Virus record (IMG/VR): IMGVR_UViG_3300021467_000006
Coordinates: 32,321 to 96,320 of that record
Strand: one strand, 5' to 3'
Origin: a virus
Length of the DNA: 64,000 nt
Shown here: one piece after another, positions 7,546 to 32,058 of the stretch
Layout: every line of letters begins with the position of its first letter
How positions within the stretch are numbered: position 1 is the stretch's first letter
Position numbers and translations under genes: made by a program
The notes under the pieces: model-generated
Database searches by the model: none
What the model saw: the letters and a program-made list of their open reading frames with translations, nothing else
Told to the model about the DNA's origin: nothing

Positions 7546-7597
7546 AGGTTGGTTACAGCAAACAAAATGCCATGCGGAGGCTCTAACACCAACCTGT
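7546..7597 (+). ncRNA. ACAGCAA-motif structured RNA, unit 1
   Basis: AGGTTGGT-T-ACAGCAA...ACCAACCT-GT; internal hairpin GCC-ATGCGGA-GGC. Confidence 0.7.
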
Positions 7598-7692: not shown

Positions 7693-7758
7693 GCGGGAAC
7701 TGGATGGCAGATGTTTTTCTACCCGAAAAATAGGATGGTTCGATTCCATCTTCCCGCT
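7693..7758 (+). tRNA. Shrunken tRNA-Gly-like gene (ACC in the anticodon position, minimal D arm)
   Basis: Acceptor GCGGGAA/TTCCCGC with discriminator T; T arm GATGG-TTCGATT-CCATC; anticodon arm TGTTTTT-CTACCCG-AAAAATA; D hairpin CTG-GATGG-CAG; 1-nt variable region; no encoded CCA. Confidence 0.7.
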
Positions 7759-7768
7759 CTTAAAAACA

Positions 7769-7954: not shown

Positions 7955-9406
7955 ATGTTTTCCAAAACCCATGAAGGTGGAACTCAGTATCCCTTCTCTT
8001 TAGATCATCATTTAGAATTCTTCTCTAAAGCAGGCTCCCTTTTTAAGAAAAGAGAATCTTTTTATGGATCTGAAGAATCAGCTCTTTCTCTTTTCCAGAA
8101 AATGTGGGTAGTAGATGAAGAGTTATCTATGAAACTGCTCTTTTGGCTGAGAGATTGCAGAGGTGGAGCTGGAAATAGATCCGGTTTTAGAGAATGTATC
8201 AATTGGTTAGCTACCTATGATCCTAGCCTGCCTTTTGATTTTCCAAATTACAAATGGGTAAAAGCCAACTTACATCTAATCCCAAAGTATGGAAGATGGG
8301 ATGACTTGAAGGCTTTATTTGGAACTACTTTGGAAGAGAAAGCTGCAAAATTCTGGGCTGAAGCTTTAAAGAAAAGAGACATTCTTGCAGCTAAATGGGC
8401 TAAAAGGCATTATAAGCCTCTTCAAAAAGCATTAAATACCAACGAAGCTAGATTAAGGAAGATGCTTTCTAGAATTAGAAAGAATCATATAGTTGAGTAC
8501 AAATTGTGCTCTAATCTCTGGAAAGAGATTGAATATCCTAAAGTACCTTCTGTAGCAATGGCAAGATATACAAATGCTTTTGCCAGGCATGATGAAGAAG
8601 GCTTCAGGAAATTCAAAGAAGACTTAAGAAAAGGAAAGGTAGAAATCAAAGCTTCTGTACTTTTCCCCCACGATTGCGTCAGAACTGTAAGAAGTGGAGA
8701 CGCAGAAATAGCAGATGCTCAGTTTGAAGCTCTTCCTAATTATCTGGATGGTAATAAAGAGCGTATTATCGTAATTTCTGATACTTCAGGATCTATGAGT
8801 ATTCGAGTATCTGGTTCTGTCAGGGCTGTAGATATCTCTATTGGAATGGCATTGTATTGCTCTGCCAAGATTCCTAAAGATAATCCTTTCCATAAGAAAT
8901 TCATTGCATTCTGCTCTGAAGGTAGTTTTAAGGATTGGAATGGAATGAAATTTTCAGAAGCAGTAACAAGTGGAGAGATATTTGATGGTGCCATAGGTGG
9001 AACTAGAATTGATAAAGCTCTTGATTTGATACTCAAAACAGCAAGATTCTTCAATCTCACTAATGAGCAAATGCCTACTTGCTTGCTTATTGTTTCGGAT
9101 ATGCAATTTCATGAAGGTTTATCACAATGGAATTGGGGCAAAAAAGACTTCACTCCCGAATTAGTACAAACAGAAGTCAATAAAGCACTAAAGAGATGGG
9201 ATAAAGCTGGGTATAAAAGACCTAAGATAATCTACTGGAATACCGCTGGTTATGCTGGGTCTCCAGAAACAGTCAGAGCTGAAAATACAGCTTTGGTATC
9301 TGGTTTTAGTCCATCTATACTTAAAGCTATTTTCTCTGCTTCAGAATTCACACCTTATACAATTATGTTAGAAGCTATCAAGAAGTATAAAATCAATAAA
9401 CCTTAA
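7955..9406 (+). CDS. DUF2828-family protein with C-terminal vWA domain (Ro60/TROVE-like architecture)
   Basis: RDCRGGAG, YGRWDDL, LAAKWA, KVPSVAM, MIDAS DTSGSM, SDMQF, IYWN and VSGFSP motifs; AGGAGG RBS. Confidence 0.85.
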   Translation: MFSKTHEGGTQYPFSLDHHLEFFSKAGSLFKKRESFYGSEESALSLFQKMWVVDEELSMKLLFWLRDCRGGAGNRSGFRECINWLATYDPSLPFDFPNYKWVKANLHLIPKYGRWDDLKALFGTTLEEKAAKFWAEALKKRDILAAKWAKRHYKPLQKALNTNEARLRKMLSRIRKNHIVEYKLCSNLWKEIEYPKVPSVAMARYTNAFARHDEEGFRKFKEDLRKGKVEIKASVLFPHDCVRTVRSGDAEIADAQFEALPNYLDGNKERIIVISDTSGSMSIRVSGSVRAVDISIGMALYCSAKIPKDNPFHKKFIAFCSEGSFKDWNGMKFSEAVTSGEIFDGAIGGTRIDKALDLILKTARFFNLTNEQMPTCLLIVSDMQFHEGLSQWNWGKKDFTPELVQTEVNKALKRWDKAGYKRPKIIYWNTAGYAGSPETVRAENTALVSGFSPSILKAIFSASEFTPYTIMLEAIKKYKINKP

Positions 9407-12734: not shown

Positions 12735-15392
12735 ATACTCTACTATGGATAATATGAGTGAAATCATAAAAAAGGGTTTTAAATCCAAACAAGAAGCGAT
12801 TAATTACATGGCTGCTTACCCTGAGAAACATATGCCGTCATTCTTTGTTAAGGAAATAAGGGAATATGAACTCTGGGATTGTTTTGTCAAACAGGCTAAA
12901 AAGAAGAAAGATAAAGCGAGGAAAAGAGATGAGTAGTAGTTGGAGAATAATAATTGGAATGTTTCTAATCATGCTGCCTCTTATGGTTAGTTTGGGATAT
13001 AGTGTCTGGTCATTGGGTTTAAGACAGACGATTTTAATTATGTTGTTAGTCGTTTCCATATTAGGATGTGTGGGTGGTGGACTTTATCTCTTACAAAATG
13101 GCAATGAAGAGGAGGGAGAATAAGATGAGTACAGATGATACATACGAGAAAGAAATTAAATATGATAAAGAGAAAGCCAGAAAGATTCTTATGAAGATAT
13201 TCGAGTGTAAAGAAACTAATACAAAAAAGGAAGAGGATGAGAAATGAAGAAAATTAAAGATATAGCAATATGGATATTATTTCAATTAATAGCAATAACA
13301 TTGCTTTATTTGGCGGGAGTCAAGGATGTAAAAGGCGCTGAAAATGTCTTAAAATTTATCATAGCTATTAATTGTGTTTTTTCTATTCTTATCCTTATTT
13401 TAGTTACTAAGGAAGATGAGAGAGTTATTTCAACATTAGCTAATAAATATAGAATCCCTTACGCAATTGACATGATTTACAGCTTACTTTTTGCATGTGC
13501 TTTAGCATGGTTTGGCTATACAGTCTTAGCTATAGTAGATTTTGTAGCTGGCTTAGCCCAAATAGGCACATCTCAAGAAGTAGAGAAGTTAAAAAAAGGA
13601 GAAAAATGTGAATAATGAGAATCAATATGAAGCAATAACAGAGACAATTTTGGTAGACATGACAAAAAAAGAAGAAATTTGGAAGCAAGTTAAACGAATG
13701 GAAGAGGTCTTCAACGAACACGAAAAAGTCAACGATGATTATCACATGGCCAGAGCTACAATGCTGGCTAACTTTGGAGAAAAAGGAAGCATAAGAAAAG
13801 GGTTAATCAATTCTAATCAAACATTAACACAAATGATCGTTGAAGCCTTGGGTTGTTTAGTGGAAAAGGTCAATCAATATGAAGGGGCTATTATAGAAAA
13901 AGAAGAGACAAAAAGATTAATAAAATTGTAATTCCCTTATAATAAAAGAAAGGGGAAAATAAATAAATTCAATTATTGCAAAGGAGAGGAATGAAATACT
14001 TTCTACAACAACTTATAGCACTCCTGCTTATTGATTCTCCAGTACTTGTACTTCTTTATTATGCAATAGCTGAGGAAGTCCTTATACCTACACGGTTCAT
14101 GGTTCTTAATTTTGCCATATTAGTCACGTTGGGAATATTTATATATCCTTTTGGAGGGAAGAGATGAGCAGTTTTTTCTGTGAATATTGTGGGAAGGAAA
14201 TAATTGACACTGAGAATGGTTATATCACTGGATGTGAACATTATCCAATAGAAGAAAAATCCCAGCAACTAGATCCCAAAATGGAGGTATTATTAATAGA
14301 TATGCAAGAAGCTATAAAACCTAATTTAGAATATAAAATCATAACTGGAAATATTACAAAACTACAAACAATGCTAAATCAATGGCGTCACATGTATGAA
14401 TTAAATATCATTCAAATGATACAATATAAACAAGGATTAGCCATTTTATTGACAAGAAGGAGGATTAAATAATGGGTGAATACATTATATATCTGAAAGA
14501 AGGGGAAGCTATAGATTACAACATGGCCGAGGATGGAAAATATAAACCTGATTATAGAGGAAAAATAGTTGTTCCTTCAGAAATGAGAAGTGATGGATTA
14601 TGGCCTGTATATTTCTATAAAAATGGTTCTATGTATGCCTCTATAGATCCCAATCTACTCACCGAATTCATTGAGCCTCTAATTAAAAAATTAGAAGCGC
14701 AAAAAACAGAATATGAACATGAACATAAAATAGAAGAGCTACATAAAAAATTAGAAAAGGAAACCTCTGCAAGCGAAAATATTGCAAAGATACAAGGTTT
14801 ATTGAGATTATTGGATAAAGTTAATCCAGATGATTTAATACGTCTGAAGAAGGAAGGGATTTTATAAAGGGGTCTAATAATGATATTTAGGGGATTAGAT
14901 ATACCATATGGCAAGATTTCTGAGAAAACAAAAATAGATAAGCAATATCTATCAAATCTATTTTTAGATAATTATAAAGGAGAAATATCTATAATTGAAG
15001 ATGCAAGCCAAGATAGAATAGAATTAATGGAAATAATCACTCTCCAACCAAGGATAGCTATTAAAAAAGCGATTAACTATCCTCTTAATTGGTATGGCAG
15101 CCATGCTAAAATAGGTGAAGAAGCTGTAGAAAGATACTATAATGACAATTTATACTTAGTAATAGATCTCTGGATATCTAAAGAAATAAGAAAAGTTTTC
15201 GATAAGTATAAGAAAATCATATTAGCTGATGCTCAAGGAGTTATTGTTAAATATATTAATTACTCATGGGCAGACAAGCAAATATTAGATTATTGGTGGA
15301 TTACAATTTCACAACGAGATTATGATTTTTCGCAGTTAAAATCATCTGCAACATATTTTGTAGAAGCAAAATATAAAATAGGTATTATCTAG
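12728..15392 (+). CDS. Run of small co-oriented hypothetical genes (about 12728-12936, 12929-13123, 13244-13615, 13608-13931, 13976-14167, 14164-14472, 14472-14867, 14880-15392), several with transmembrane segments
   Basis: Tightly packed or overlapping ORFs with purine-rich RBSs; no family recognised. Confidence 0.6.
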
Positions 15393-15407
15393 ATCTATAA
15401 AAAAGGA

Positions 15408-15779
15408 TTGGAAATGAAAACATTTACTTGTCTGAAATGTGGAGGAAAATATATTCCAAAACAAGGAACGTTAAAAGACCTGGAATTCTGCGGGTTTATA
15501 TTAACAGTAAAAGATGTTGAATATTATGAATGCGAAAAATGTGGTAGGCTACTATTTTCCTCAGAAACTGCTGAAAAGATAGAAAAAGAGTTTTCTAAAG
15601 TTAAAAAAGAAGAAGGGTGTAAAGCATGTAAATATTCCTATTCTGGTTATTTCAAATACCTTAAAGGAAATGTCTGCATACATAACACAATAATAAAATA
15701 TTACCCCAAAGGAAGGATATTAAATCCTGATTTTAAAATACCTTCTTGGTGTCCACTTTTAAAAGGAGTTAAAACATGA
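15408..15779 (+). CDS. YgiT/MqsA-type zinc-finger protein
   Basis: CLKCGG...VKDVEYYECEKCGRLLFSSE, plus further Cys motifs. Confidence 0.65.
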   Translation: MEMKTFTCLKCGGKYIPKQGTLKDLEFCGFILTVKDVEYYECEKCGRLLFSSETAEKIEKEFSKVKKEEGCKACKYSYSGYFKYLKGNVCIHNTIIKYYPKGRILNPDFKIPSWCPLLKGVKT

Positions 15780-17165
15780 AGATACATCCAAAAGATATGC
15801 TATTAGAACCAACAAACAATGAAGATCTTTTAAAATATCCCAGAGATATGATGGAAATTGAAGAAGAAGCCCGAAAAGCCTTTAAAGCTAAAGAGCTGAG
15901 AGAAGAATATCTCGAATCTATCAAAAATAAAAAAGAAAGAAGAATAGTTCTGCAGAAGGAAAGGACATTGGAAGATGTATTATTAAGCGTAACAAAACTA
16001 TATCCAAACGGTTGTACTGTTAATTTCATAATAGAGGGAAGGAAGGTATATATTAAATATGGTTGTCATGGTTTTACAGCTTTCTTTTCTTTTAGTGGTG
16101 ATGAGAAATTATTTATTGATTGGTTCGAAGAAAATAAAGACGATAAAGAAAGGGTTAGGGTAGATCATATAATACATCCTAAAATCTTAGCAGAACTTAG
16201 AAAGAGAGTATATCAATGCCCTATATGTGGAGGGGAAATATATTCAATGTAAAAGTAACTGATTAAAAAGGAGTATAAAATGCGTAAACCTTGTGCTTTC
16301 AACAGGAATTCTTACTTGATACATGTTTCGGATTTTGAAAAACTTTTGGTTTCAGAAGCAGATATCGAATTGAAAGAATTCGATTATAATCCAAAAGATC
16401 TTGCTCTGGAATTGGCTTATACAAGATATCTGCTAGCAAAAGCTGAAAAGGAACTTGGTAAGAAACTAGATTTTGACGAATCTTATCCCATAAGGAACAA
16501 ATCAGGCAAAAGGGGAAGAGAGGAAGTAGATGTTGAAATACCTAACTCAGATGTAGTTGTTAAGATAACCTCTGAAGGCAATGGGATAATGTGGGAATGG
16601 AAAAATATAGAAAATATCAAATTGACTTTCCATAGAAGCGAATGGCCTTTGCATCCACGTTCTGAGTTCTCTTTTGAAGAATTACGGGAAATATCGCTTA
16701 CATCAGCTTATATTGTTGTTGAGTTCTTTGAGCCTCATTAATAGGATGAATTATGTTTATATTAAAATTATTTTGTATTTTATTATGGGCATTTATATGT
16801 ATCTTTAAACTCTGTATTATAGTTATTGTAGCGGTGTGTGTAGCAATTGGAGTTATTGGAATACGAGGATAGTGAATGATGGAATCTAATACCATTTTAG
16901 ATTGTTTATTATCGGTATTTATGCAGCTATTGGGGATAGAAATATGAATAAGGAATTAATAAAATGGACTTGCAAATATTGCTCTGCATATTTTGAATTT
17001 TATATGCATAAAAATTCAGATCAACCCCGTATTATCTCTGAAGATAGAATAATGATTCGGGAAACTACATTGTATTGCCCTTGGTGTGGAACACCTGTAA
17101 AAATAAGAGGAAAAATAGCTAAAATAATTATGGAAGATGCAAAATCTAAATTTATTGTTTCATAA
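15776..17165 (+). CDS. Hypothetical genes 15776-16252, 16280-16741 and 16902-17165 (zinc-ribbon motifs in the first and last)
   Basis: ORFs with RBSs; CPICGG; CKYC...CPWCG. Confidence 0.6.
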
Positions 17166-17667: not shown

Positions 17668-17875
17668 TGGAGCCATCGTCGAATCAGCATTTAAGCGCTG
17701 GACTGGGGTGGTGTGGCCTCCCAGGTCTGGCTTTACAGGCCATTCGCTGTTGCATATCCCCCAACAGCGAATCCCCAGCCTATCCCCTGCCTTTCGGCAC
17801 CAGGACGGGGTGCCCTCTTAAAGGGCAAATCTGGGCAGCGCCACTTTTACAGCGAGGAGACGCCAGCCTCGGCTC
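17668..17875 (-). ncRNA. Candidate ~210-nt GC-rich structured RNA of unknown family
   Basis: About 60% GC in AT-rich flanks; ends pair (GAGCC/GGCTC); hairpins include TGCC-GAAA-GGCA (GNRA on the - strand) and an 11-bp ATTCGCTGTTG/CAACAGCGAAT stem. Confidence 0.6.
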
Positions 17876-20674: not shown

Positions 20675-21226
20675 TTATCCAAATAATAATGAAGATTCAA
20701 TTATTTTAGAATCATATCTATAAATGTTTATTAATCTATCGCTACATTCTTTCCATGTATTGCTAAAGTGCTTGCCCTTTCTCTCTCCTATTTTCTTCCA
20801 ACCCATAGCTTTCCAAAATAAATTGGATTCTAAATCGTAAGCACAACCACAACTAAAGGATAGGGTTTGAACATTGCTCTTTCCATATTCTAAAACTTCA
20901 GTTAGTAACATTCTTCCTCTTTGCATCATTCTAGCATCTTCCTGAAGGCATATTTGGGCTATTTTACCTATTCTTATTTTGGAAAGGGGATTACCAAAAG
21001 ATGCAAGGACAAAACCAACTAAATCACCATTTATTTCACAAACATATAATTTATCATTACATCTATCAGACCATCTATTTTTGCTAGGTTTTAATCCTGT
21101 TATAGCAGCTTCATATGCTTGTTTAGGTATAAAACCTATGCTAAAACTATTCTTTTTAGATAAATCTATTATATATTTTAGATCTTCTAATCTTGCTGGT
21201 CTTACTAACTCATCAGACATGTTCAA
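20675..21226 (-). CDS. GNAT-family acetyltransferase
   Basis: VRPARLEDL, NGDLVGFV, QICLQEDARMMQRGRML, SNLFWKAMGW. Confidence 0.8.
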   Translation of the reverse strand: MNMSDELVRPARLEDLKYIIDLSKKNSFSIGFIPKQAYEAAITGLKPSKNRWSDRCNDKLYVCEINGDLVGFVLASFGNPLSKIRIGKIAQICLQEDARMMQRGRMLLTEVLEYGKSNVQTLSFSCGCAYDLESNLFWKAMGWKKIGERKGKHFSNTWKECSDRLINIYRYDSKIIESSLLFG

Positions 21227-22549
21227 TGCTCTCTTAATCCTTTAGGTTTCTCTGCTTTTATTTGCAATTTCCATCTATTCTTTCCGCAGCCATATCTGCA
21301 AATTGCTTTGGTAACTACAAACTTTTGTCTGCATTCGAACCATGTTACTTCTACCCAAGCACCAACACCACAATTCCTACAAATTATTCTCAGCCACGGC
21401 CTCTCATCCAACTCTATAACATCAAATTTTTCAAACAGGCTTTCTGGATATGTTTCTGATTTGTTTAATAGCCACTCTCTAGGGTCTTCATCTTCTATAT
21501 AATGTAGCTGAAAACGCACTATTCACTCCAAATAATACATCCATCTAGCAAAGCTATCCCTAACTTTAGGTTCAGGACGTAATAAATTCCCATAAATAAC
21601 ATAAATACCGCTTTTCCTATGAAAAGTATTATGATGTTTTAAAATGCTGTATAATTTACCTTCTGAGTAAAGAAGCAAATATATATCCATATTACCCTTA
21701 TTAAAATGCACTTTTGAGCAAATTTCTGGATCATAAACAATACATCTAGCAATATACTGTTCTAGCTCATCACTATATTCTTCTACTTCTACTCTCTTCA
21801 TGGCTTAAATAATGGTAAAATTAATTAATTTATCTGGTAGTATTTGTAGCTGTGTTTGATGTCTCAAAGTCATAACATTTTTCTAATTCATATAGGGTTC
21901 CTGGAATAAGCTCTGACCAAGAATGTCCGCAATGCTCACATACATAATAATACCATGTTGGATGAGTAGGTTTCTTGGCTTGTAAAAGTCTTTGTGCCTT
22001 ACAATTAGGACACGTGGTATATGTCTTATACTTTGTATTATAATTCATTACTGCTCCTTCCTACACATCCTCAATGCCTTCGAGAGGCAAGTCTCACAAA
22101 GGTTGTATGTCTTTGTCCTGGTGAAGAAGAAGCTCTCCACCAGAATGTTGATCTGGATGCACTCTTTCTCCTGACCGCATTGGTTACAGATTGCTATGCC
22201 TACGTTCTTCATACTTTCTCTCCTGTACTATCTTCTGACCAAAGTGTCTTCTTGGATTCCCACACATCCAACAAGAACACCTTGGCCTGCTGTTCACTAG
22301 AATGCTTAGTTCTTTCTCGCTTGGCGAATACCAGGTGATTTCCCTAGCTAATCGCTTCATCAATCGCTGTCTGTTGTATCGTCTTTGTGCTCTAGGTTTT
22401 ATATTTTTCACTGCTAACTTATTCATCATTATTTTCTTCATCTCCCCAGTCTGGAATAACCAATTGACCATTTGTCTTGATGACATTCCTAATAGCAACA
22501 AAGCACATATACTCGTCAACAGATACAAAATGATTATCATGAGATTCAA
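21223..22549 (-). CDS. Small hypothetical genes (21223-21519, 21523-21801, 21830-22048 zinc ribbon, 22184-~22440 with CSCWMCGNPR)
   Basis: Packed ORFs with CxxC motifs. Confidence 0.55.
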
Positions 22550-22594
22550 TATTCTCTATATTTTCCATCGCTAGCTTGCTCCTTTTCGAGTTAA

Positions 22595-22720
22595 CAGTGG
22601 AAGTATGTATCTGATCCTATCTCTCCCTCAATTAAGACTGGCTAGTGGTTGCAAACCCACGGGACGCCGGCCTTTTGCTTCCACTGAGGGGGATTCCCGA
22701 CCGCTAGGGTCTAGCCAGTC
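22595..22720 (-). ncRNA. Candidate structured RNA (GC-rich intergenic element)
   Basis: Perfect 10-bp stem GACTGGCTAG/CTAGCCAGTC (22636-22645 with 22711-22720); an internal 9-mer (22678-22686) is complementary to 22595-22603. Strand inferred from flanking genes. Confidence 0.45.
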
Positions 22721-22724
22721 CGTC

Positions 22725-22949
22725 TTACACAATCTTTCCCTCATTGCTTAGTTCATCACAAATATCCATTGCTAATTTTGGCGGTATTTGCAACTGTTCT
22801 ACTATTTCTGCTAGGTCAACAGTTCCCTTATCATCTATATAATCAGCTATAACCCTTTTGAGAGAGTTTGATTCTTTTTCAGTCACAAATACATCCTTTT
22901 CACAATCAACAACGATACAAGGTTTGCCTCTTCTTCTCTTTACCTTCAC
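22725..22949 (-). CDS. Small winged-helix-like protein
   Basis: IADYIDDKGTVDLAEIVEQLQIP...ICDELSNEGKI; GGAGG RBS. Confidence 0.6.
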   Translation of the reverse strand: MKVKRRRGKPCIVVDCEKDVFVTEKESNSLKRVIADYIDDKGTVDLAEIVEQLQIPPKLAMDICDELSNEGKIV

Positions 22950-22963
22950 CTTGGCCTCCCTGA

Positions 22964-23030
22964 TGGAGCGGGTTGCAGGAACTGCCCCTGCTCATCCCGT
23001 TGGTTAGGGATGCTCGCTGACCGAACCCGC
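22964..23030 (-). tRNA. Second shrunken tRNA-Gly-like gene, with encoded CCA
   Basis: GCGGGTT-CGGTCAGCGAG-CATCCC-TAACCAAC-GGGATG-A-GCAGG-GGCAGTT-CCTGC-AACCCGC-T-CCA. Confidence 0.7.
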
Positions 23031-23042
23031 TTCTATCTTATA

Positions 23043-23450
23043 CTATGCAGAAAGATCAATTTTTACCCACCCAGTGATTAATTTAGGATGAACATAAGTT
23101 ACTTTTACTTCATCCTTTCCTTGCAAATTTACAAAATATACATATCCAATTCTATTTGGTTTCCAAATTTTACCAAGCAAATCACAAGCCTCTATTTCAA
23201 GGAGTCCTATAAAATTACCACCATACTTTGCATAACTAATAGCCATGTTAAAATCATCCGTCAGATAGACGTGTAAATGCTTTAACTTTGCTTGGACATA
23301 TTCAGAAATTCTCTTCTTAAATTTACATTTTAGTTGGCCACAAAAAGAATACTTCTCTATTACATTATTTATGGTTTGTTTCACATCAATTGGTTTTAAA
23401 CCAGTAATTAAAACTTCATTAGGAGAAATTTTTGTTCCATGATATAGCAT
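23043..23450 (-). CDS. ADP-ribosyltransferase-fold protein (Tpt1/KptA- or ART-like)
   Basis: LYHGT...GLKP...HVYLTDDFNMAISYA...YVYFVN; likely start at ATG 23450. Confidence 0.55.
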   Translation of the reverse strand: MLYHGTKISPNEVLITGLKPIDVKQTINNVIEKYSFCGQLKCKFKKRISEYVQAKLKHLHVYLTDDFNMAISYAKYGGNFIGLLEIEACDLLGKIWKPNRIGYVYFVNLQGKDEVKVTYVHPKLITGWVKIDLSA

Positions 23451-23475
23451 TAGAATGCTCACCAACCGAACCCGC
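23450..23475 (-). repeat. Diverged copy of the 5' half of the tRNA-like gene at 22964-23030
   Basis: GCGGGTTCGGTTGGTGAGCATTCTAA versus GCGGGTTCGGTCAGCGAGCATCCCTAA. Confidence 0.75.
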
Positions 23476-23476
23476 C

Positions 23477-23782
23477 TTAATCCTTCTTCTGCAACAACCC
23501 AGCCACTATCGGTAGTGCTATTTGTGCTAACTGCAACCATCCTCCACCGCCTGCACTACCAACTATGCCCGCAATTACATTCATTACATCCTTGATCTGG
23601 AGCTCGCCGAGGTTGATGCCTTGCTGATCTAGCAACTTGGCAATAGCGCTCAAGTCTAGTCCTTGTGGCTGAGCGTAGAACTGTTGCTCGCCAATTTTGA
23701 TACTACGGACTTGGGCCTCAGCTGGAATGTCTAGCTGGGTTGTAATTGCATGTGTTACGACTACTTCTATGTCCTGTGGCAT
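23477..23782 (-). CDS. Hypothetical protein with hydrophobic C-terminus
   Basis: GGAGG RBS, 101 aa. Confidence 0.65.
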   Translation of the reverse strand: MPQDIEVVVTHAITTQLDIPAEAQVRSIKIGEQQFYAQPQGLDLSAIAKLLDQQGINLGELQIKDVMNVIAGIVGSAGGGGWLQLAQIALPIVAGLLQKKD

Positions 23783-23791
23783 GTTGCCCTC

Positions 23792-26035
23792 CTATCTAAA
23801 ATTGGCTTGGCCTGAGTAATAGTGCTTACTTCGATGTTCTGTATATGAAATATCGTCCCATTCTATGGTGTACTGCCCATCCGCTGTTGCAGGACTTTTC
23901 TTATGAGTGTATGTACAACTTAATGCAGGCGACTCATTTCCTTGAGTGTCTACAGCCGTAACTACATATTGAGTAGTGCCACTAGTATTTCCTAGCCAAT
24001 CTACCCAAGAACATTTGCCACTTTGGCACCATCCCTTTGGTATTGAGGCTATTCTATTCTGTTGGTTGATAGCAGGGATCGAACCATCTTCAGCATAAAT
24101 ATTGTAATAACGTATCAGTTCTGGGTAGTTAGAATTGTAACTGGTATAAAAGTCACTGGAGCCTGGGTCATCAAGGTCGCCAGGGCTAGATGGATAAACT
24201 GTATCTTGCGAACCTGTACCACTACCATCACTTACGGTGATGGTATATATGTTAGATAAAGTACGGCTTTCAAGACCAGACCACTCAATAGACGTGACAG
24301 CATAATACCATGTTCCGTCACCTGGGGTGTCTGTTGCTTCCCAGTAAGAATCGCCTGACCAGGTGCCATCGCTGAAATCATAACGACTAAAAATATCATA
24401 ACTAACTGTCGTTATGGGTTCCCATGTCGATTTATCAGTAGAACGCCATAATCTAAACTCTTTTATCTCTCTTGGCGGAGGCGGATCATCTGAGTCTTGA
24501 TTTGGCCAACCCCTACTTGTATAGCCTCGTGGTGATGTTGTAGATAGCCTCCAATCCCATCGAATAGTGACAACTCCATTGGTTGCGCTACAGGTAGTAA
24601 TTTCAGGCGGGTGTGGAAATTCTGCAATTACCACAAAAAGGTCACGCACTCCAGTAGAACTTAGCCAGTCAGACCCCACAGCTATTTTCGTGCCATCGGG
24701 GCTTTGCCCAGGCTTAGTGAACTCGTTAGCTGTTTCAGAATGTAGATATGCCAATATGTAGTGGTCTGCATTATTAGTTGAATTGTATTTAGTTATGCAA
24801 ACATTTACTGCCGGACTACCACATGTATGTGCAGCGTAATCTGTCCAACCTGTCCACGCATGATATTGGGTGCCTCCAGGCGTAGTGTAAAGCGCCGTTT
24901 GTGTAGAGTTTTCCACATCAAAGACTCCTGGACTAACTGGAGAAGCATCAGTGTCAGAAAATGCTATATGAGTACCCCATCTATCAGTAACTCCATGGCT
25001 CCAGTAGTCACTAACGAAGTCAGGCAAAGTGCCTGCATTACCATTAACGCATTGAATCTCTTTCTGTGCATCTGTTCCTTCCCACCAGTCGTAAGGGCTA
25101 GTATGATCTACTGTGTGATTCGGAGCGTTATTGTCTGTACCCCATGGTCTCATCCGCCACCAGTCAGCAGCAGTGTGTAAGAGATAAATCCAATATCCTT
25201 GAGAACTGTTCCCTGTAAACATTTCATCATGCCAATCACCCTGTCCAGTAGACGGAGTATTCGCCCAATATGTATCTAATGAGGGTTGGCTGTAACTTAA
25301 TTTGAGTTGACGGGAGCTGGAAGGCTCGATTTGAACAATGTAAAATGGTTCGTTTTCAGCCCAAGTACTGGTTAAGTAGTAGAGGCCATCAGAAGTGATA
25401 GCGTCTTTCATGCCTCCAGTTCTTAATGAAGTAGTGTCACCAGCTATCATGTCTACTATGAGAGTTGAGCTTACCGAAGTGTCACTAATGACTTCTCTAT
25501 ACACTGCATTCTGATCTTTACCAGAGACACCGTTATCATTATATGCTATTGCGTATGCTATGTCTGGAATGGTCGGAGACCAGTCAAAGTATGGTCTCCT
25601 GATGTCTGTTGTACTCACAGATCCATTGATGGGACGCCAATAAGTTCCATCGCTTCTAGCGACATACCACGGATAACCTGTGTTTCTAGTGAACGCTCCT
25701 GTTTCGACCTCTTGCACAAATGCAATTCTTTTTCCATCAGCAGACCAAGGTTGCCAGCCATATTCCGTAACTGACCGAACAGTGTTTACATCAGGAAGTT
25801 GTGACCAAAGAATAACTTCATGGGACGTTGTTGTGTCTTGGTAGATACATAGTTGTGGTTGCCTTATGTAATAGTTATTTGAGTCTTCTCCACTATAATA
25901 TGTATTGCTTCCCTTTCTGGAGGAACGTGCCTCTAACTCGTCTAAATTTTCATACGCAAAAACATTTACTGCAAACAACAAACTCATAAAGAATAAGATT
26001 GTTAAAGTTATCCTTACTGATCGCATCCTAACCAC
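23792..26035 (-). CDS. Secreted protein, TolB-like beta-propeller plus FnIII-like C-terminal domains
   Basis: Signal peptide ending VFA; WSADGKRIAF and QSPDGTKIA repeats; WYYAVTSIEWSGLES and YVVTAVDTQGNES. Confidence 0.7.
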   Translation of the reverse strand: MVRMRSVRITLTILFFMSLLFAVNVFAYENLDELEARSSRKGSNTYYSGEDSNNYYIRQPQLCIYQDTTTSHEVILWSQLPDVNTVRSVTEYGWQPWSADGKRIAFVQEVETGAFTRNTGYPWYVARSDGTYWRPINGSVSTTDIRRPYFDWSPTIPDIAYAIAYNDNGVSGKDQNAVYREVISDTSVSSTLIVDMIAGDTTSLRTGGMKDAITSDGLYYLTSTWAENEPFYIVQIEPSSSRQLKLSYSQPSLDTYWANTPSTGQGDWHDEMFTGNSSQGYWIYLLHTAADWWRMRPWGTDNNAPNHTVDHTSPYDWWEGTDAQKEIQCVNGNAGTLPDFVSDYWSHGVTDRWGTHIAFSDTDASPVSPGVFDVENSTQTALYTTPGGTQYHAWTGWTDYAAHTCGSPAVNVCITKYNSTNNADHYILAYLHSETANEFTKPGQSPDGTKIAVGSDWLSSTGVRDLFVVIAEFPHPPEITTCSATNGVVTIRWDWRLSTTSPRGYTSRGWPNQDSDDPPPPREIKEFRLWRSTDKSTWEPITTVSYDIFSRYDFSDGTWSGDSYWEATDTPGDGTWYYAVTSIEWSGLESRTLSNIYTITVSDGSGTGSQDTVYPSSPGDLDDPGSSDFYTSYNSNYPELIRYYNIYAEDGSIPAINQQNRIASIPKGWCQSGKCSWVDWLGNTSGTTQYVVTAVDTQGNESPALSCTYTHKKSPATADGQYTIEWDDISYTEHRSKHYYSGQANFR

Positions 26036-26757
26036 CCTGTTGAGCTGACATCTACATGGTCAATATAATAATGAATTGGGATATTGGTAGCGTTATCTCC
26101 ATACTGTCCTAATTTAATCCTCTGAAAATCTGTCTCTGGATTATTTGTGCCACTACCTTGAGAAATGCCATCTATCTTCCATTCCCAGTTATTACTAGAG
26201 TTATCCCAATATGCTTCAACACAATATGTTGTTCCAGTGGAAATGGTATATGTATCTCTTGAAGCGTATCCGCTCCAAAGTTGCAGCTCAAGGTTGCCAC
26301 TGGTTTTGGCTAATTTTATTGCTGCATTCGAAGCGTCCCCCACTGAGTCAGTACTTCTTGGGACAAATATATAATAACTGTCTCCATCAGCTAAGCTCTC
26401 CGATTCTAGGTAGAATATGAATCTTACATATATTGCTGAATGGCTAGTTGAAAGATCTGTATATGTATGTGCCCTAGAATAAGTACCAGTAGGAATCTCT
26501 ATTTCTAACCATTCCCCGTCAAAACCGCATTCAGAAGAACCAGGAGTAGTATTTTCGTCTTCATCAACCGTACCCCCACTAATATTCTCAGTCCAAGTAT
26601 TATCATATCCAGTTGAATCAAATGTCTCATTGAGTAGGTCACCAGATGAAAACGTACCACAAGATGTTCCTCCACCACTAGGAAAGTTCCTGACTACAAT
26701 CATCCCAGAGCAGAACAAGAAAATTAAGCATATGAATGGTATCAGTAGCTTTCTCAT
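26014..26757 (-). CDS. Secreted beta-sandwich (ConA/lectin-like) protein
   Basis: Signal peptide MRKLLIPFICLIFLFCSG; WKIDG...YYIDHV. Confidence 0.55.
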   Translation of the reverse strand: MRKLLIPFICLIFLFCSGMIVVRNFPSGGGTSCGTFSSGDLLNETFDSTGYDNTWTENISGGTVDEDENTTPGSSECGFDGEWLEIEIPTGTYSRAHTYTDLSTSHSAIYVRFIFYLESESLADGDSYYIFVPRSTDSVGDASNAAIKLAKTSGNLELQLWSGYASRDTYTISTGTTYCVEAYWDNSSNNWEWKIDGISQGSGTNNPETDFQRIKLGQYGDNATNIPIHYYIDHVDVSSTGWLGCDQ

Positions 26758-26759
26758 AA

Positions 26760-29717
26760 TTACTTCTCCACCTTAAGAGCTGCTGTTACCCGCTGTATTG
26801 ATGTAGCATTACCTTCAACCACAAAAGCAAGGATATCTCCAGCGCTGATTGATGTTGTCCAACCTGTCAATGTCGGATCTTCATACTTAACGCCGGAGGA
26901 TATAGCTGGCGTGGCACTAGCCGTTATCGAGTCCCCATTCACGGGATGTGTGCTTCCGGCATCAAAGTCTGAGTAAGTACATTTCCAAATGTCCACGGTT
27001 ACTGAGCCCGATTGATCTGCTAGTAAAGTAACGCTCTTGATGGTGCAGTTATAAGGCACTCTGATGTAGAGCTTTTCTCCATCAGTGAGTGCAGAGCCGC
27101 CACCATCTAAAATGACGTTAATTGAGTCGGTAACAACATCGGAGCCATCTAACATATTATCTTCATCTACATTGGTTAAGCTGTTACCAGTGCCATTAGC
27201 GTCAAAAGTTGTGTTTGTGAATGTCTTAGAGTCGCTGGCATAAGCAGATAACTCACTTTGCACATAAGCCGTAGTTGCAATACTGGTATCATTGTCATTA
27301 GCACTGGCTGTAGGTGCCGTTGGGTCACCGGTTAAGGCAGGAGAAGCCAATGGAGCTTTGGCATCGAGTTGGGTCTGGATGGCAGAAGTCACACCATCAA
27401 GATAGCCAAATTCTGTATTGTCCACGCTTCCACCAGCTATCTTGGTTGCGTCTATGGCAGCCGAAGCGTTGATATCTGTGTTAACTATTGCTCCGTCAGC
27501 TATTAGGGCACTAGTAATTACTCCAGTCATGTTAGAATCAATAAGGTACTGCCCCCAATCAGAGCCATCGTAGAACTCAAACCTGTTCTCCGCTTCATCA
27601 TAATTAAGCCAGCCTTCTGACGGCGAACCAGTAGTAAAACCATTCGTGTTACTCACGTCTATATAATGAGAACCGTCAGCGGAGGTGGTCTCGAACCCAG
27701 TTGCCTTGACAACCTTGTTAAACGTAAAATCGTCGTCTGTGATCGTGAGACTTGGGTCTGTTCCGGTTCCGGTATCCCAAGTCCAAGATTTAGAAGCATC
27801 TGTGTTAGTACCAAAAGTGGTGTCATCTATTTCCGTAGTATCTAGAGCAATAGTTACATTCCCACCTGCTCCACCATCGGTGATATCCAATGCCGTACCT
27901 TCAGTAAGCACTCGCTCTGCAGAAAGAGTTGCGTTTGTGGATAGAGTTACATATTCAGCGTCAGTTGGTGCACCTGAACTAGGAGGCACAGCCCATGTGC
28001 CATCGCCCCTAAGAAAATCAGAAGTAGATCCACTGAGCTTCGGAAGTAGCCCATGATAGCTTGTGGTTGCATTGAGATCAGTATTGTCGTCAGGTGTACC
28101 AAAGTCATCTAGTTTAGTAGTTGTCAAGGCCAATGTACCACTTGTGGATGGCAACGTAATGTTTATGTCTGAGGTGGGGTCATCAGTAGGAGCTATAATA
28201 CTGAGTTCATTAGTATCATCAGTGGTTCCCTCCCATATGAGCATCGTGGTTCCAGTTGAGACCACTCCATCCGTGAAAGCTGCACCAGATGAGAAGGCTG
28301 GGCCTACATCTGTAATATCACCACTTCCGCTAGGGGTTCCCCAACTTGGTGCAGATGTGGCACCATTGCTCATCAAATATGTACCAGAAGAACCAAGGGC
28401 AAGTTCGGTTATATTTCCAGAACCATTACTGTAAAACAGCCTCCACGCTGTAGGAGACGCTAATGTCTGTAAATCACTGTCAAGTGCTCCATTTGCAACT
28501 GAACCAGATGCGGAAATAGTCAAATCATCAGCTACTTCATTGTCTGCCCAAGGGTTAGCAGTATTAACCCAGTTAGCTGTTATTGTCTCAGCTTCGTCTA
28601 GCATGGCTATTGAGTCAACATCAGAAAGATCAGAACTGCTTATTTGAGTTCCATTTATCTGATAAACAGCCCCGCTGGGCAGATTCAAGTTTCCAGTGTC
28701 ATCAATCGTAACATTGGAGTTCTGGATCATCTTCCCGTCAGTTCCGTCAAACCTTGCTATTGCATTATCCGTAGAAGAAGAAGGACCTGTTACGTCCCCA
28801 GTACCAGACACAGCATCTGGCACCCAATAAGTACCGTTCCATTTAATTACATCGCCTGTGGATGGTGTGCCACTGATAAAGTCATGTAGACTGATATCAT
28901 TAGCATCATCACCTCCAGTTGCGATATTAAGAACGGGTTGATCTATTTTATTATTATCAAGCCCATCACCAGCTAATAAATCAGGATCAAGTGAATTACT
29001 CACTTCTAATGATTGGTCAGAAATAATTAAGCCATTTCCAGGCATCAATGTGCTAACTGCCCCGTCCGAATCATCCCAAAAGAGAATTGCATCAGTATTA
29101 GGGTCAGTTAGATTTGCTATATCATCCAACCAATCATCATAAGCCTGTACATCTGTTCCTATTTCTAAGCCTAAGTTAGTCCTAGCCGTAGCCGCATTAC
29201 TAGCTCCAGTACCACCATCTGCTATTGCTACATCAGTAGAACCAGGTGCATAATAGTCGGTTCCAGCTACTCCAGCGGAATAACCACTTTCATTCCCAGC
29301 CCCTTTTACCAATCCGTTGATACCAGAAGCCAGCGAATCAAGATCAGAATCAGCAGGTTGGTAGGTACTGGACAAATCAGGAATCATATCTTCATGAATC
29401 TTAACTAATCGCCATACTCCACCACTTGAGTAGTCATCCGGTCTTATCACATTCGGTGAGCTCTCTGCATCCGTGCCGTCAGCATCAAAGATATACTCGT
29501 AAACTGTGACTGTAGTGCCGGAAATTACTGTTACTATGGCAGAGTCACCATCAGCCAAGTCATCCGAGTTAGGTGCCCCACTTGCTGTGATATCCAGTGC
29601 ATCTAAGGCTCCGGTTCCTCCACCAGTTAACGCTGTACAACCATAACGGTTAGCTGCGTAACTCTGGCTACAAACTAGGATAAAAAAAGCTAAAATCAAA
29701 AACAGAATCTTTTTCAT
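26760..29717 (-). CDS. Tail-fibre-like repetitive protein with an N-terminal signal peptide
   Basis: Signal peptide ending SYA; fibre-type motifs [68 protein letters not shown]. Confidence 0.75.
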
Positions 29718-29728
29718 ATTACACGCTC

Positions 29729-31531
29729 CTATAAGTCTTGGAATGTTATTCCTCCTGTATCTTTATAGTTTATCCCTGCTCCATCCATGAATGTCATATA
29801 TCCAGCCTGAGATGGCGGAGCTGGTGTTGAGGCTAAAGCATACATCCTCTGCATATGCCACCTTCTCCCATCCCACCACAATGCCTTCCTCTCGTCACAT
29901 CCAATGTCAGGCGTGCCGAGGATTGGTTGCTTGTCTATGTCCAAGACTGTCTCGTGGAAGCCTGAGATGGTTGTGCCTGCGTTGATGCAGGGAGAGTTGT
30001 GAGAGAGTCTGAAACCAGATAGCAACGGGTCAGACTGGATATTACCATCTATAGTATCACCATTGCTATCGGACGTATTCCAGGTAGACACTGACATAGC
30101 AGTGCCACGGTAATAGATGACGTTAGCAATACCAGATTTATAAACACAATTATTCTCAAATGTGTTGTTCAGAATATCAGAAGCGTTATCAACTACGATG
30201 CCATAGTTATCAAGGCTATCTTTCGAGTCCAAACCACAGTTATAGACGATGTTGTTAGAGATAATGTTATCCTCTTTATTGTTAGCATCTGTTCTAAGCC
30301 TAATTCCAGCTTCATCACAGTTGAGAATGGTGTTATTGGCTATTTTATTATCATGGCAGACATTAGAACCATAACCCTGTAATTCAATGCCTTGGGCTGT
30401 ACCGTAGCTATAGCAAGGCGAATTGCTAATTGTATCTATGAGATTATAAGCAAATATGTTATGATCGCCGTTGATTTGATTTCTTACAGTAGTATTTAAT
30501 ATACAGTTTCTAACAATCTCGTTATACTGAGTTTTGGTATCCGGCCCGCTAACACTAAATCCCCGCATATAGGAAACATTTGCACCAATTATAACGTTGT
30601 CCGAGATAGTGTTGTACTTGACGCCGTTACCAGTAGAGGTAGCAGTAAGCCCAACACCGCAATGACCCCAATTGGAAATGGTGCAATTGGTTACGTTGCA
30701 ATGTTCAGCACCTTGATAAAGTGTGATTCCATCGTTTAGGTTTATATCTTCGTGGTCATAAGTTCCGTTAAAGCCGGATGATATAGTACAATTCACAATA
30801 TCAATATAAGTAGATGAATCTGGAGTGGAGTCCTGTTGTATTTGCACGCCCTTGACAGCACCATAACCAATTGTACAATTCTCCACAATGGCATGATCTA
30901 CATTGACTAAATATAGACAGGCAGAATACCCACCACGAAGTTCAATGTTCTTGATCTTGATGTATTGTCTGGCTTCCGCATATAAGGCGTAACTAGATGA
31001 ACTACCCTTCATTGACGAATATTCATCGGCCGGATTCTGGGTAGCGTAGACATATAAAGTACTTGAACCAGTATCGTAATACCATTTATAGGTAAAGTTG
31101 ACTGTAGTGGAGGACGTAGCTAAAATTGCCTCATCACCATCTAAATACAGTCGTCCTGGACGAGGGCTATAGCTCATAGACCAAATATTATTGCCATTAT
31201 CTGTCCAATTAGAGGACTCATCCCAACCGGTAAGTTCATTTATTACATTGATAATAATTGTGTCGCCCTCTCTACCCTCAAGAGTAACATATCCGGTAGC
31301 ATCACCTACATCATTACTGCGCCATACTACTTTATCGAATTCAGCAGTTCCTCCTGGAGTACTTGCTAAAACTCTAATCTTGTCGTTCGGCCCTAAGTCT
31401 TCTCCATCAAATGCTGCTTGTATGTCTGTATAGTCGCATCCACTAGAACATACAGTATAGGTAGTCGCCCACCCCACCACGGGCAACAGCAAAAGCATTA
31501 TCAAGGTTACGAGAAAAAACGCTTTCTTCAT
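29729..31531 (-). CDS. Secreted right-handed beta-helix (pectin-lyase-like) protein, possible depolymerase
   Basis: Signal peptide ending GWA; Asn-rich parallel beta-helix repeats (NCTI, NNTI, NNIV); SPCINAG...PDIGCDE. Confidence 0.75.
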
Positions 31532-31569
31532 TTAAGCCTCCACCGAGCAAATTGTCAGCGAACAAATTG

Positions 31570-32058
31570 CTACGGATAATAAACATCAAACACAATCGTA
31601 ATGGTTGCCTTCTTCGAATCTCCCATCCCTGAGAGGGAAATTGTCATGCTATCCCAAACATGAGTCCAGTCCAGGTAGATGCTTGTTGCAGAGCTGTTAC
31701 TTAGGTTTGTGCCTTGTCCGCCTGTAAGAATCTCTCTTCCATTGCTGTCTTTGATGCTTAGGTCAAAATTATCATCAGGAGTATCTGTTCCGTCTGGTTC
31801 AACAACTATGCAACTATATCCTGCAATATCCAACATCCCCAAGTCGCTGATGGTGATGAAGGCATCTCCATCTCCATTAGAAGTAGCTTCTAATGTAAGT
31901 TTATATCTATTATTGCCATAATATTGTAATCCTGCTTGTGGATTGGTAGGAGACCATGTTCCCGAACTAACTGTATAACTTCCAAGAAGGGCAAAAGAAT
32001 AAACAGGCAGGAATAAACTGAAAACCAATAAAAAGAGCATTACTTTCTTCATTTTCAT
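31570..32058 (-). CDS. Secreted hypothetical protein
   Basis: AGGAG RBS before ATG 32058; signal peptide ending SFA. Confidence 0.65.
   Translation of the reverse strand: MKMKKVMLFLLVFSLFLPVYSFALLGSYTVSSGTWSPTNPQAGLQYYGNNRYKLTLEATSNGDGDAFITISDLGMLDIAGYSCIVVEPDGTDTPDDNFDLSIKDSNGREILTGGQGTNLSNSSATSIYLDWTHVWDSMTISLSGMGDSKKATITIVFDVYYP

Follow-up and report, generated by a model that had tools for sequence, protein, structure and literature searches.

The 67-nt element at positions 22964–23030 (minus strand) of the phage DNA described here, hereafter copy B, is a discrete module that extends from its first base, G1, to its encoded CCA and has been maintained by purifying selection in three or more related vent phages. 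We put the probability at about one half that copy B is a genuine gene for a small RNA, derived from tRNA-Gly by reduction, that mimics a tRNA but does not decode; it probably serves a purpose other than protein synthesis. The window, i.e. the whole stretch of 64 000 nt that was analysed, corresponds to bases 32321–96320 of the 96 320-bp IMG/VR record IMGVR_UViG_3300021467_000006 (G000), a genome with direct terminal repeats (DTR) at its ends; positions given without a prefix are those of the window. Copy B sits in a 93-nt gap between two minus-strand ORFs and, read 5' to 3', is built from the following parts.

22964–23030, minus strand: copy B, a tRNA-Gly-like RNA gene of 67 nt, characterized by sequence, fold, descriptor, conservation and purifying selection
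23030–23024 (5' strand) and 22974–22968 (3' strand), minus strand: acceptor stem of 7 bp, GCGGGTT/AACCCGC
23023–23013, minus strand: D region of 11 nt, CGGTCAGCGAG
23012–23007 and 22998–22993, minus strand: anticodon-like stem of 6 bp, CATCCC/GGGATG
23006–22999, minus strand: 8-nt loop, UAACCAAC, with ACC at loop positions 3–5
22992, minus strand: variable region, a single A
22991–22987 and 22979–22975, minus strand: T stem of 5 bp, GCAGG/CCTGC
22986–22980, minus strand: T loop of 7 nt, GGCAGUU (GGCAGTT in the DNA), non-canonical
22967 and 22966–22964, minus strand: 3' end, U73 (T in the DNA) followed by the encoded CCA

Every feature that the sequence-only reading had listed for this element (acceptor, U73, CCA, D region, stem, loop with ACC, variable nucleotide and T loop) is present, and the coordinates and strands confirm its placement 15 kb away from, and on the strand opposite to, a second mini gene at 7693 (copy A). 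The cloverleaf is both the minimum-free-energy and the centroid structure computed for copy B with RNAfold (−30.2 kcal/mol, z −2.97), with a fold energy matched by 2 of 200 shuffles, and its three arms are retained when the element is folded with 30-nt flanks. A sequence-blind descriptor was also written (7-bp acceptor, 6–14-nt D region, 5–7-bp stem with a 7–8-nt loop, 1–5-nt variable region, 5-bp T stem with a 7-nt loop, N73 and CCA), and copy B was its sole match on both strands of the 96 320-bp genome, compared with four matches in 500 dinucleotide shuffles (~0.008 per genome). When CCA is not required the descriptor is loose, with 0.84 matches per shuffled genome, and its matches in the real genome were then copies A and B and a third site that probably arose by chance.

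DNA related to the window phage is present in several hydrothermal-vent metagenomes, and copy B was found in two relatives. The copy in IMGVR_UViG_3300022188_000008 (95 kb, hereafter G001; L002:1779–1845) differs at 1 of 67 nt, the first loop base having changed from U to C (loop CAACCAAC), and the copy in a 4.1-kb metagenome contig (L007:2256–2322) differs at five; contigs of metagenome runs X2 and X4 span copy B without any difference. The similarity of both G001 and L007 to the window runs exactly from G1 to the A of CCA, and a contig from run X3 loses similarity 2 nt past G1. Downstream of copy B the genes are unrelated in the window phage, G001 and L007, a different ORF starting 11–14 nt after the CCA in the latter two. 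The gene upstream, encoding 135 amino acids, is common to the window phage and G001, and in L007 copy B and the homologue of this gene are separated by about 320 nt of other genes. The immediate neighbours of copy B in the window are as follows.

23043–23450, minus strand: 135-aa gene (MLYHGT...), a predicted stand-alone ADP-ribosyltransferase fold, ending 12 nt before copy B
22725–22949, minus strand: 74-aa ORF, with the ribosome-binding site (RBS) GGGAGG and a GTG start 14 nt past the CCA
23455–23475, minus strand: decaying relic, GCGGGTTCGGTTGGTGAGCAT, of the 5'-terminal 21 nt of copy B, a direct repeat that immediately precedes the upstream gene's start codon

The three pairwise comparisons gave 1, 5 and 6 differences over the 67 nt of copy B (0.015, 0.075 and 0.09), against synonymous divergences (pS) of 0.134, 0.195 and 0.257 for the adjacent 135-aa gene in the matching comparisons, i.e. 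copy B evolves 3–9 times more slowly than the synonymous sites of its neighbour. Two of the L007 changes, both C to U, lie in the T stem and keep G-U pairs, and a third (G5 to A) breaks one pair of the acceptor stem, leaving an A·C mismatch; among the three near-identical sequences compared, no compensatory double changes were found. Conservation extends to the loop AACCAAC, the Gly identity pairs, U73 and the encoded CCA. The relic, located 445 nt upstream of the full copy, offers a second yardstick. G001 carries it at L002:1273–1293 with the same junction, GAGCAT/TCTA, and three different substitutions, and the relics of the two phages differ at 6 of 21 positions against 1 of 67 for the full copies; it is absent from L007. 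Since the junction is shared by two phages and the substitutions are not, the relic appears to be a recombination scar that is decaying neutrally, and it is best read as the mark of one illegitimate recombination in the common ancestor and not as a working part. It is, as such, a built-in neutral control for the slow change of copy B.

The second mini gene lies at the following position.

7693–7759, plus strand: copy A, mini tRNA-Gly-like gene (ARAGORN score 107.9; 20 bits with model R1; kept in G001)

Unlike copy B, copy A is called by ARAGORN. It has a canonical T arm, the loop CUACCCG, C at position 37 and no encoded CCA, and is situated inside an array of Y-RNA-like units that precedes a Ro60-like gene (7955–9406, plus strand; Pfam DUF2828 and DUF7788; phrog_850 'RNA-binding protein'). 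The G001 version carries two changes, one of which turns a G-U pair into G-C. A covariance model built from the three B sequences only (R1) returned copy A as the next-best match both in the window (20 bits, E 0.01) and in G001 (20.8 bits), whereas the canonical Escherichia coli tRNA-Gly(GCC), with an acceptor stem identical to that of copy A and CCA included, reached 11.5 bits, through the acceptor alone. This difference implies that the spacing and arms shared by A and B are specific to them and that the architecture is measurable. When the three B and two A sequences were placed in one model-fitted alignment, 98.9% of the cells paired, compared with ~50% in slid controls, and 18 of 18 modelled pairs held in both copies with nine differing on both sides; this counts as only one comparison of A with B, made on a structure-fitted alignment. 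Copies A and B share an architecture beyond that common to canonical tRNA-Gly.

The sequence-only reading had seen in the two copies a conserved class of D-arm-reduced tRNA-Gly-like RNAs and not random decay, with inner stems that differ and yet pair, and had proposed a covariance model, a look at the gene neighbourhoods and a search for homologues of the same shortened build. Its view is supported: by recurrence (both copies in G001, copy B in L007), by exact boundaries, with constant module edges and swapped flanking genes, by slow change, by the contrast with the decaying relic and by the scores of the model made from B sequences only.

Further relatives were sought by sequence and by shape. 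Pattern scans of IMG/VR with the 5' half, the anticodon-like arm or a 21-base signature of A and B returned only G001 and chance matches in coding DNA, and a looser 16-base signature gave, among the matches listed, GC-rich chance matches besides the A and B copies of G001. The 21-base signature yielded no further sequence relatives in 185 579 prokaryote genomes (one per species), where its matches were tRNA-Gly genes of full size with C8, one truncated piece of a tRNA-Gly(UCC-like) and GC-rich noise, and locus searches by neighbour protein recovered copy B only in the closest relatives. Judged by these pattern scans, and among the matches listed, copy B seems to have no sequence relatives outside the lineage of the window phage. 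Against cultured phages, blastn of the 1.4-kb copy B region gave no match, and the large terminase subunit shows at most 36% identity to that of any cultured phage.

Applied to 1.1 Mb of unrelated viral loci, the descriptor passed one more element (L038:9035–9104, equivalent to G002:C1:41083–41152), a 70-nt GCG...U73-CCA cloverleaf with an 11-nt D hairpin (3 bp, 5-nt loop) and a non-canonical T loop that was not called by ARAGORN. It is located 26 nt from the end of a GC-rich provirus with an integrase at the opposite end. This element may be another mini tRNA-Gly-like gene, and it hints that minis are present elsewhere too, perhaps as host genes that serve for integration. A 68-nt element of the form GCGGG...CCCGC-U-CCA (L135:13578–13645, minus strand) was also observed on a GC-rich viral contig, where a tRNA-Met gene lies about 300 nt before it; its T arm is canonical, its D region is shortened and its acceptor stem has two mismatches.

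Several other features of the window phage were recorded along the way. Copy B lies at the low-coordinate edge of a tail-fibre/beta-helix block (22000–32000) with 41–45% G+C, against 30–35% elsewhere. A RecA-like gene with an intein (19–2127, plus strand; Pfam RecA and Intein_splicing) opens the window, and an Rfam EGFOA RNA match (17704–17826, minus strand; 49.8 bits against a gathering threshold of 37.7) adjoins an AT-rich strand-switch region. Outside the window, genome positions 13114–16032 (L178:13114–16032) encode a PPDK_N-like protein (698 aa) and, after it, a DSP-PTPase (272 aa) of the 'Swiss Army Knife'/polymorphic-toxin type; an SNF2 helicase and a radical-SAM gene precede them. In the window, a structured, GC-rich segment follows the 74-aa ORF (22595–22720, minus strand); many contigs of run X6 cover it, and it is 95.6% identical over 91 nt in G001, where it is kept though the preceding gene differs.

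The bacterial glycine determinants are U73, G1-C72, C2-G71, G3-C70 and anticodon C35 and C36 (PMC9976931, Table 1). U73 and the three acceptor pairs are invariant in the three B and two A copies, and ACC is conserved in the loops of both copies, with the limit that the 8-nt loop of copy B makes the C35/C36 numbering ambiguous; the label 'tRNA-Gly' is, for copy B, a prediction taken from the acceptor identity set only. Canonical elongator tRNAs have a D stem of 3–4 bp with G18G19 that docks on the T loop, a T loop of the form T54-Psi55-C56-R57-A58 and a 7-nt anticodon loop with U33 and a purine at position 37. Copy B has neither a D stem nor G18G19, the 11 nt CGGTCAGCGAG forming at best a 3-bp/5-nt hairpin that borrows U7, and its T loop GGCAGUU (GUCAGUU in L007) has G/G at positions 54/58 and no T54-A58 pair. 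The anticodon-like loop of 8 nt has no U33 and no U before ACC, its position 1 being U or C and its position 2 A. Loops of 8 nt are known in frameshift-suppressor tRNAs. ARAGORN did not call copy B in default, 80%-threshold or mitochondrial modes, a search of 201 nt including copy B with Rfam gave no match to the tRNA clan even at E ≤ 10, and no canonical tRNA genes were found in the genome of the window phage. To judge from its sequence, copy B cannot plausibly decode. An ordinary tRNA was ruled out by the ARAGORN and Rfam misses, the missing U33, the degenerate T loop and the lack of a D stem.

In outline copy B resembles the mitochondrial tRNAs that lack a D arm (those of nematodes and mites and the mammalian tRNA-Ser AGY), which likewise have a short D replacement, an extended anticodon stem and a length of ~60–67 nt. 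These, however, decode, have a 7-nt loop with U33 and need co-evolved mitochondrial factors, whereas copy B is a bacteriophage RNA from which the decoding features have been lost.

A second likeness is to the YrlA-type Y RNAs that accompany Ro60/Rsr, which are non-coding and tRNA-derived or tRNA-mimicking as copy B is (PMC4201824), and the window phage shares with such systems a Ro60-like (DUF2828) gene and an RNA array, which holds copy A. The YrlA of Mycobacterium smegmatis has an acceptor-like stem of 7 bp, is an RNase P substrate and has CCA added (Chen et al., 2014; PMC4201824). YrlA and YrlB Y RNAs lie within ~4 kb of the Ro60 orthologue and on the same strand (PMC4201824), which fits copy A and does not fit copy B; they also carry a Ro-binding module with the motif GNCGAAN0-1G, whereas copy B has no CGAA and no helix beyond the cloverleaf. 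The T loop, conserved in YrlA, is degenerate in copy B, which, unlike YrlA, has a predicted Gly aminoacylation identity and an encoded CCA. Copy B was rejected as a Y RNA on the published criteria of position, strand and Ro-binding motif (PMC4201824). The 8-nt loop UAACCAAC (22999–23006, minus strand) is fully complementary to GUUGGUUA at 7548–7555 (plus strand), part of the 5' arm of the first Y-like unit, and in G001 the U to C change of the loop and an A to G change of the unit occur together. This complementarity was discarded as evidence, since the 8-mer occurs at chance frequency in the genome (three further occurrences against 3.7 expected).

The main rival to the mimic reading, although we regard it as unlikely, is that copy B is a private glycine carrier that is charged by host GlyRS, escapes EF-Tu and the ribosome and donates glycine to a phage acyl-transferase. 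The complete Gly acceptor identity, the encoded CCA and the loss of ribosome-related features would all suit such a role, for which there are precedents: Mom of phage Mu uses Gly-tRNAGly for DNA adenine modification and probably reads the acceptor end only (PMC13219725), and in Staphylococcus aureus some tRNA-Gly isoacceptors serve the ribosome and others the cell wall (PMC7826273). Both the non-proteogenic tRNA-Gly of Staphylococcus (PMC7826273) and the Gly-tRNAGly consumed by Mom (PMC13219725) are, as is predicted for copy B, RNAs of glycine identity with a job outside decoding, in systems where the consuming enzyme seems to read just the acceptor end. They are, however, full-size cloverleaves that tRNA finders detect and whose partners (FemXAB and Mom) are known, whereas copy B has an 11-nt D region, a non-canonical T loop, an 8-nt loop and no Fem, Mom or DruA gene to go with it. 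Six-frame searches of G000 and G001 gave no match to Mom (PF25680) or DruA (PF14236) at E ≤ 1, nor to FemAB (PF02388), which we count against the carrier. A candidate acyl-transferase is available in the form of a GNAT (Acetyltransf_1) ORF of 183 aa located 1.9 kb downstream on the same strand (20675–21226, minus strand), but it is generic and was not found in G001, though G001 keeps the RNA, and no acyltransferase is found among the ORFs that directly flank copy B in the three genomes.

It is rather improbable that copy B is a cis-acting processing signal, i.e. a tRNA-shaped 'punctuation mark' for RNase P and 3' trimming whose excised RNA has no job of its own. A ribosome-binding site and start codon lie 11–14 nt past the CCA in three of three genomes with unrelated ORFs, and RNase P depends mainly on the 7-bp acceptor stem (PMC4201824). 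Copy B has no promoter of its own (no sigma-70-like promoter scoring above 9/12 was found just upstream of it on the minus strand), and copy A is placed between units of the RNA array, where cutting would release Y-like units. An acceptor/T minihelix would nevertheless suffice for such a signal, yet the loop AACCAAC, the Gly pairs, U73 and CCA are conserved too, and the same Gly identity in two copies would then be a strange coincidence.

The gene upstream of copy B suggests a further, speculative reading to which we give little weight, namely that the 135-aa protein and copy B form a two-part system. All homologues of this protein start with MLYHGT. Its AlphaFold2 model from an 18-sequence alignment reached a pLDDT of 94 (a model from five sequences, pLDDT 57, was set aside), and the best structural match by VIA-align was the NAD-binding C lobe of the tRNA 2'-phosphotransferase Tpt1/KptA (residues 93–184; Z 11.8, rmsd 2.2 Å over 79 residues, 25–30% identity), compared with Z 7–9 for ADP-ribosylating (ART) toxins. 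Foldseek alone gave a weak match (E 0.02), and there was none in Pfam, the Tpt1 model included, in a sequence-profile search of PDB chains or, by tblastn, in cultured phages. The protein belongs to a small family without a Pfam model (118–167 aa, ~15 clusters at 50% identity) and lacks the RNA-binding N lobe of Tpt1; the full Tpt1 family, RtcB and Rnl-type RNA ligase are absent from G000 and G001. In a two-part system the RNA would replace the missing N lobe and could be the dedicated substrate of the Tpt1-type enzyme, or its antidote or decoy; as antidote or decoy it would restrain an ADP-ribosyltransferase aimed at tRNA acceptor ends until needed. If true, this would be an RNA-partnered ADP-ribosyltransferase acting on tRNA-Gly. 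The link between the two is loose, since homologues of the gene at 53–68% identity occur without a copy-B-like RNA and other ORFs intervene in L007.

Still less probable is the notion that copy B marks a cassette boundary or the scar of a recombination, having once been a tRNA-type site of attachment or exchange, and that it has no RNA function and is kept only because genes are swapped there. The mosaic breakpoints lie exactly at both ends (G001, L007 and the X3 contig), the 21-nt duplicate of the 5' half, 445 nt upstream, brackets the single 135-aa gene, and the L038 element, of similar architecture, lies near the end of an integrase-bearing provirus. The full copy changes, however, far more slowly than both synonymous sites and the half-copy relic, and the whole three-arm fold is preserved, not merely a core site. 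No integrase (PF00589) was matched in G001 or in the DTR-ended, lytic-type genome of the window phage, and the half copy brackets one gene only; the attachment site of an integrating phage was ruled out, no integrase being present. A working, if odd, tRNA-Gly, reading GGU or, with its 8-nt loop, a codon of four bases, would account for ACC, the encoded CCA and the Gly identity but is highly improbable, since there is no U33 (loop position 1 being U or C and position 2 A), ARAGORN and the Rfam tRNA models miss the element, an elongator-type elbow cannot form without D stem, G18G19, T54 and A58, and D-armless tRNAs are reported to function only with specialized mitochondrial factors (PMC7609411, PMC6158502).

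On the preferred reading, that of a tRNA mimic, copy B would be transcribed together with the upstream genes, as the lack of a good promoter in front of it suggests; host RNase P would cut at G1 and the 3' end would be trimmed to the encoded CCA. The cleavage would also release the downstream mRNA just before its ribosome-binding site. The acceptor/T minihelix of the mature RNA would then be read by proteins that recognize the acceptor end of tRNA-Gly, host GlyRS included. Its most likely role would be as part of a tRNA-centred conflict kit of the phage, together with the Ro60-like protein and its array of tRNA-arm RNAs, copy A and the Tpt1-C-lobe-like ADP-ribosyltransferase upstream, in which copy B would be bait or substrate for an enzyme aimed at tRNA-Gly and not a translation adaptor. 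TROVE (Ro60) proteins with tRNA-like partners have been described as a phage RNA-repair theme, and in bacteria as well (PMC7824862, PMC4201824), and the DSP-PTPase gene of the 'Swiss Army Knife' type is further context for such a kit. Against this role, copy B lies 15 kb from the Ro60-like gene and on the other strand, and no target enzyme can be named for a bait; the mimic reading as a whole draws on three near-identical B sequences, in one of which (L007) the G5 to A change breaks an acceptor pair.

Transfer RNA genes in phages are usually taken to help with codon usage or to replace host tRNAs that have been cleaved. The window phage has no ordinary tRNA and yet keeps under selection two miniature RNAs that retain only a glycine 'address label' and processing signals, and minis of this sort are invisible to standard tRNA annotation. 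If charged, such RNAs would be private amino-acid carriers for chemistry outside the ribosome; if not charged, they would be decoys or substrates in a contest over host tRNAs.
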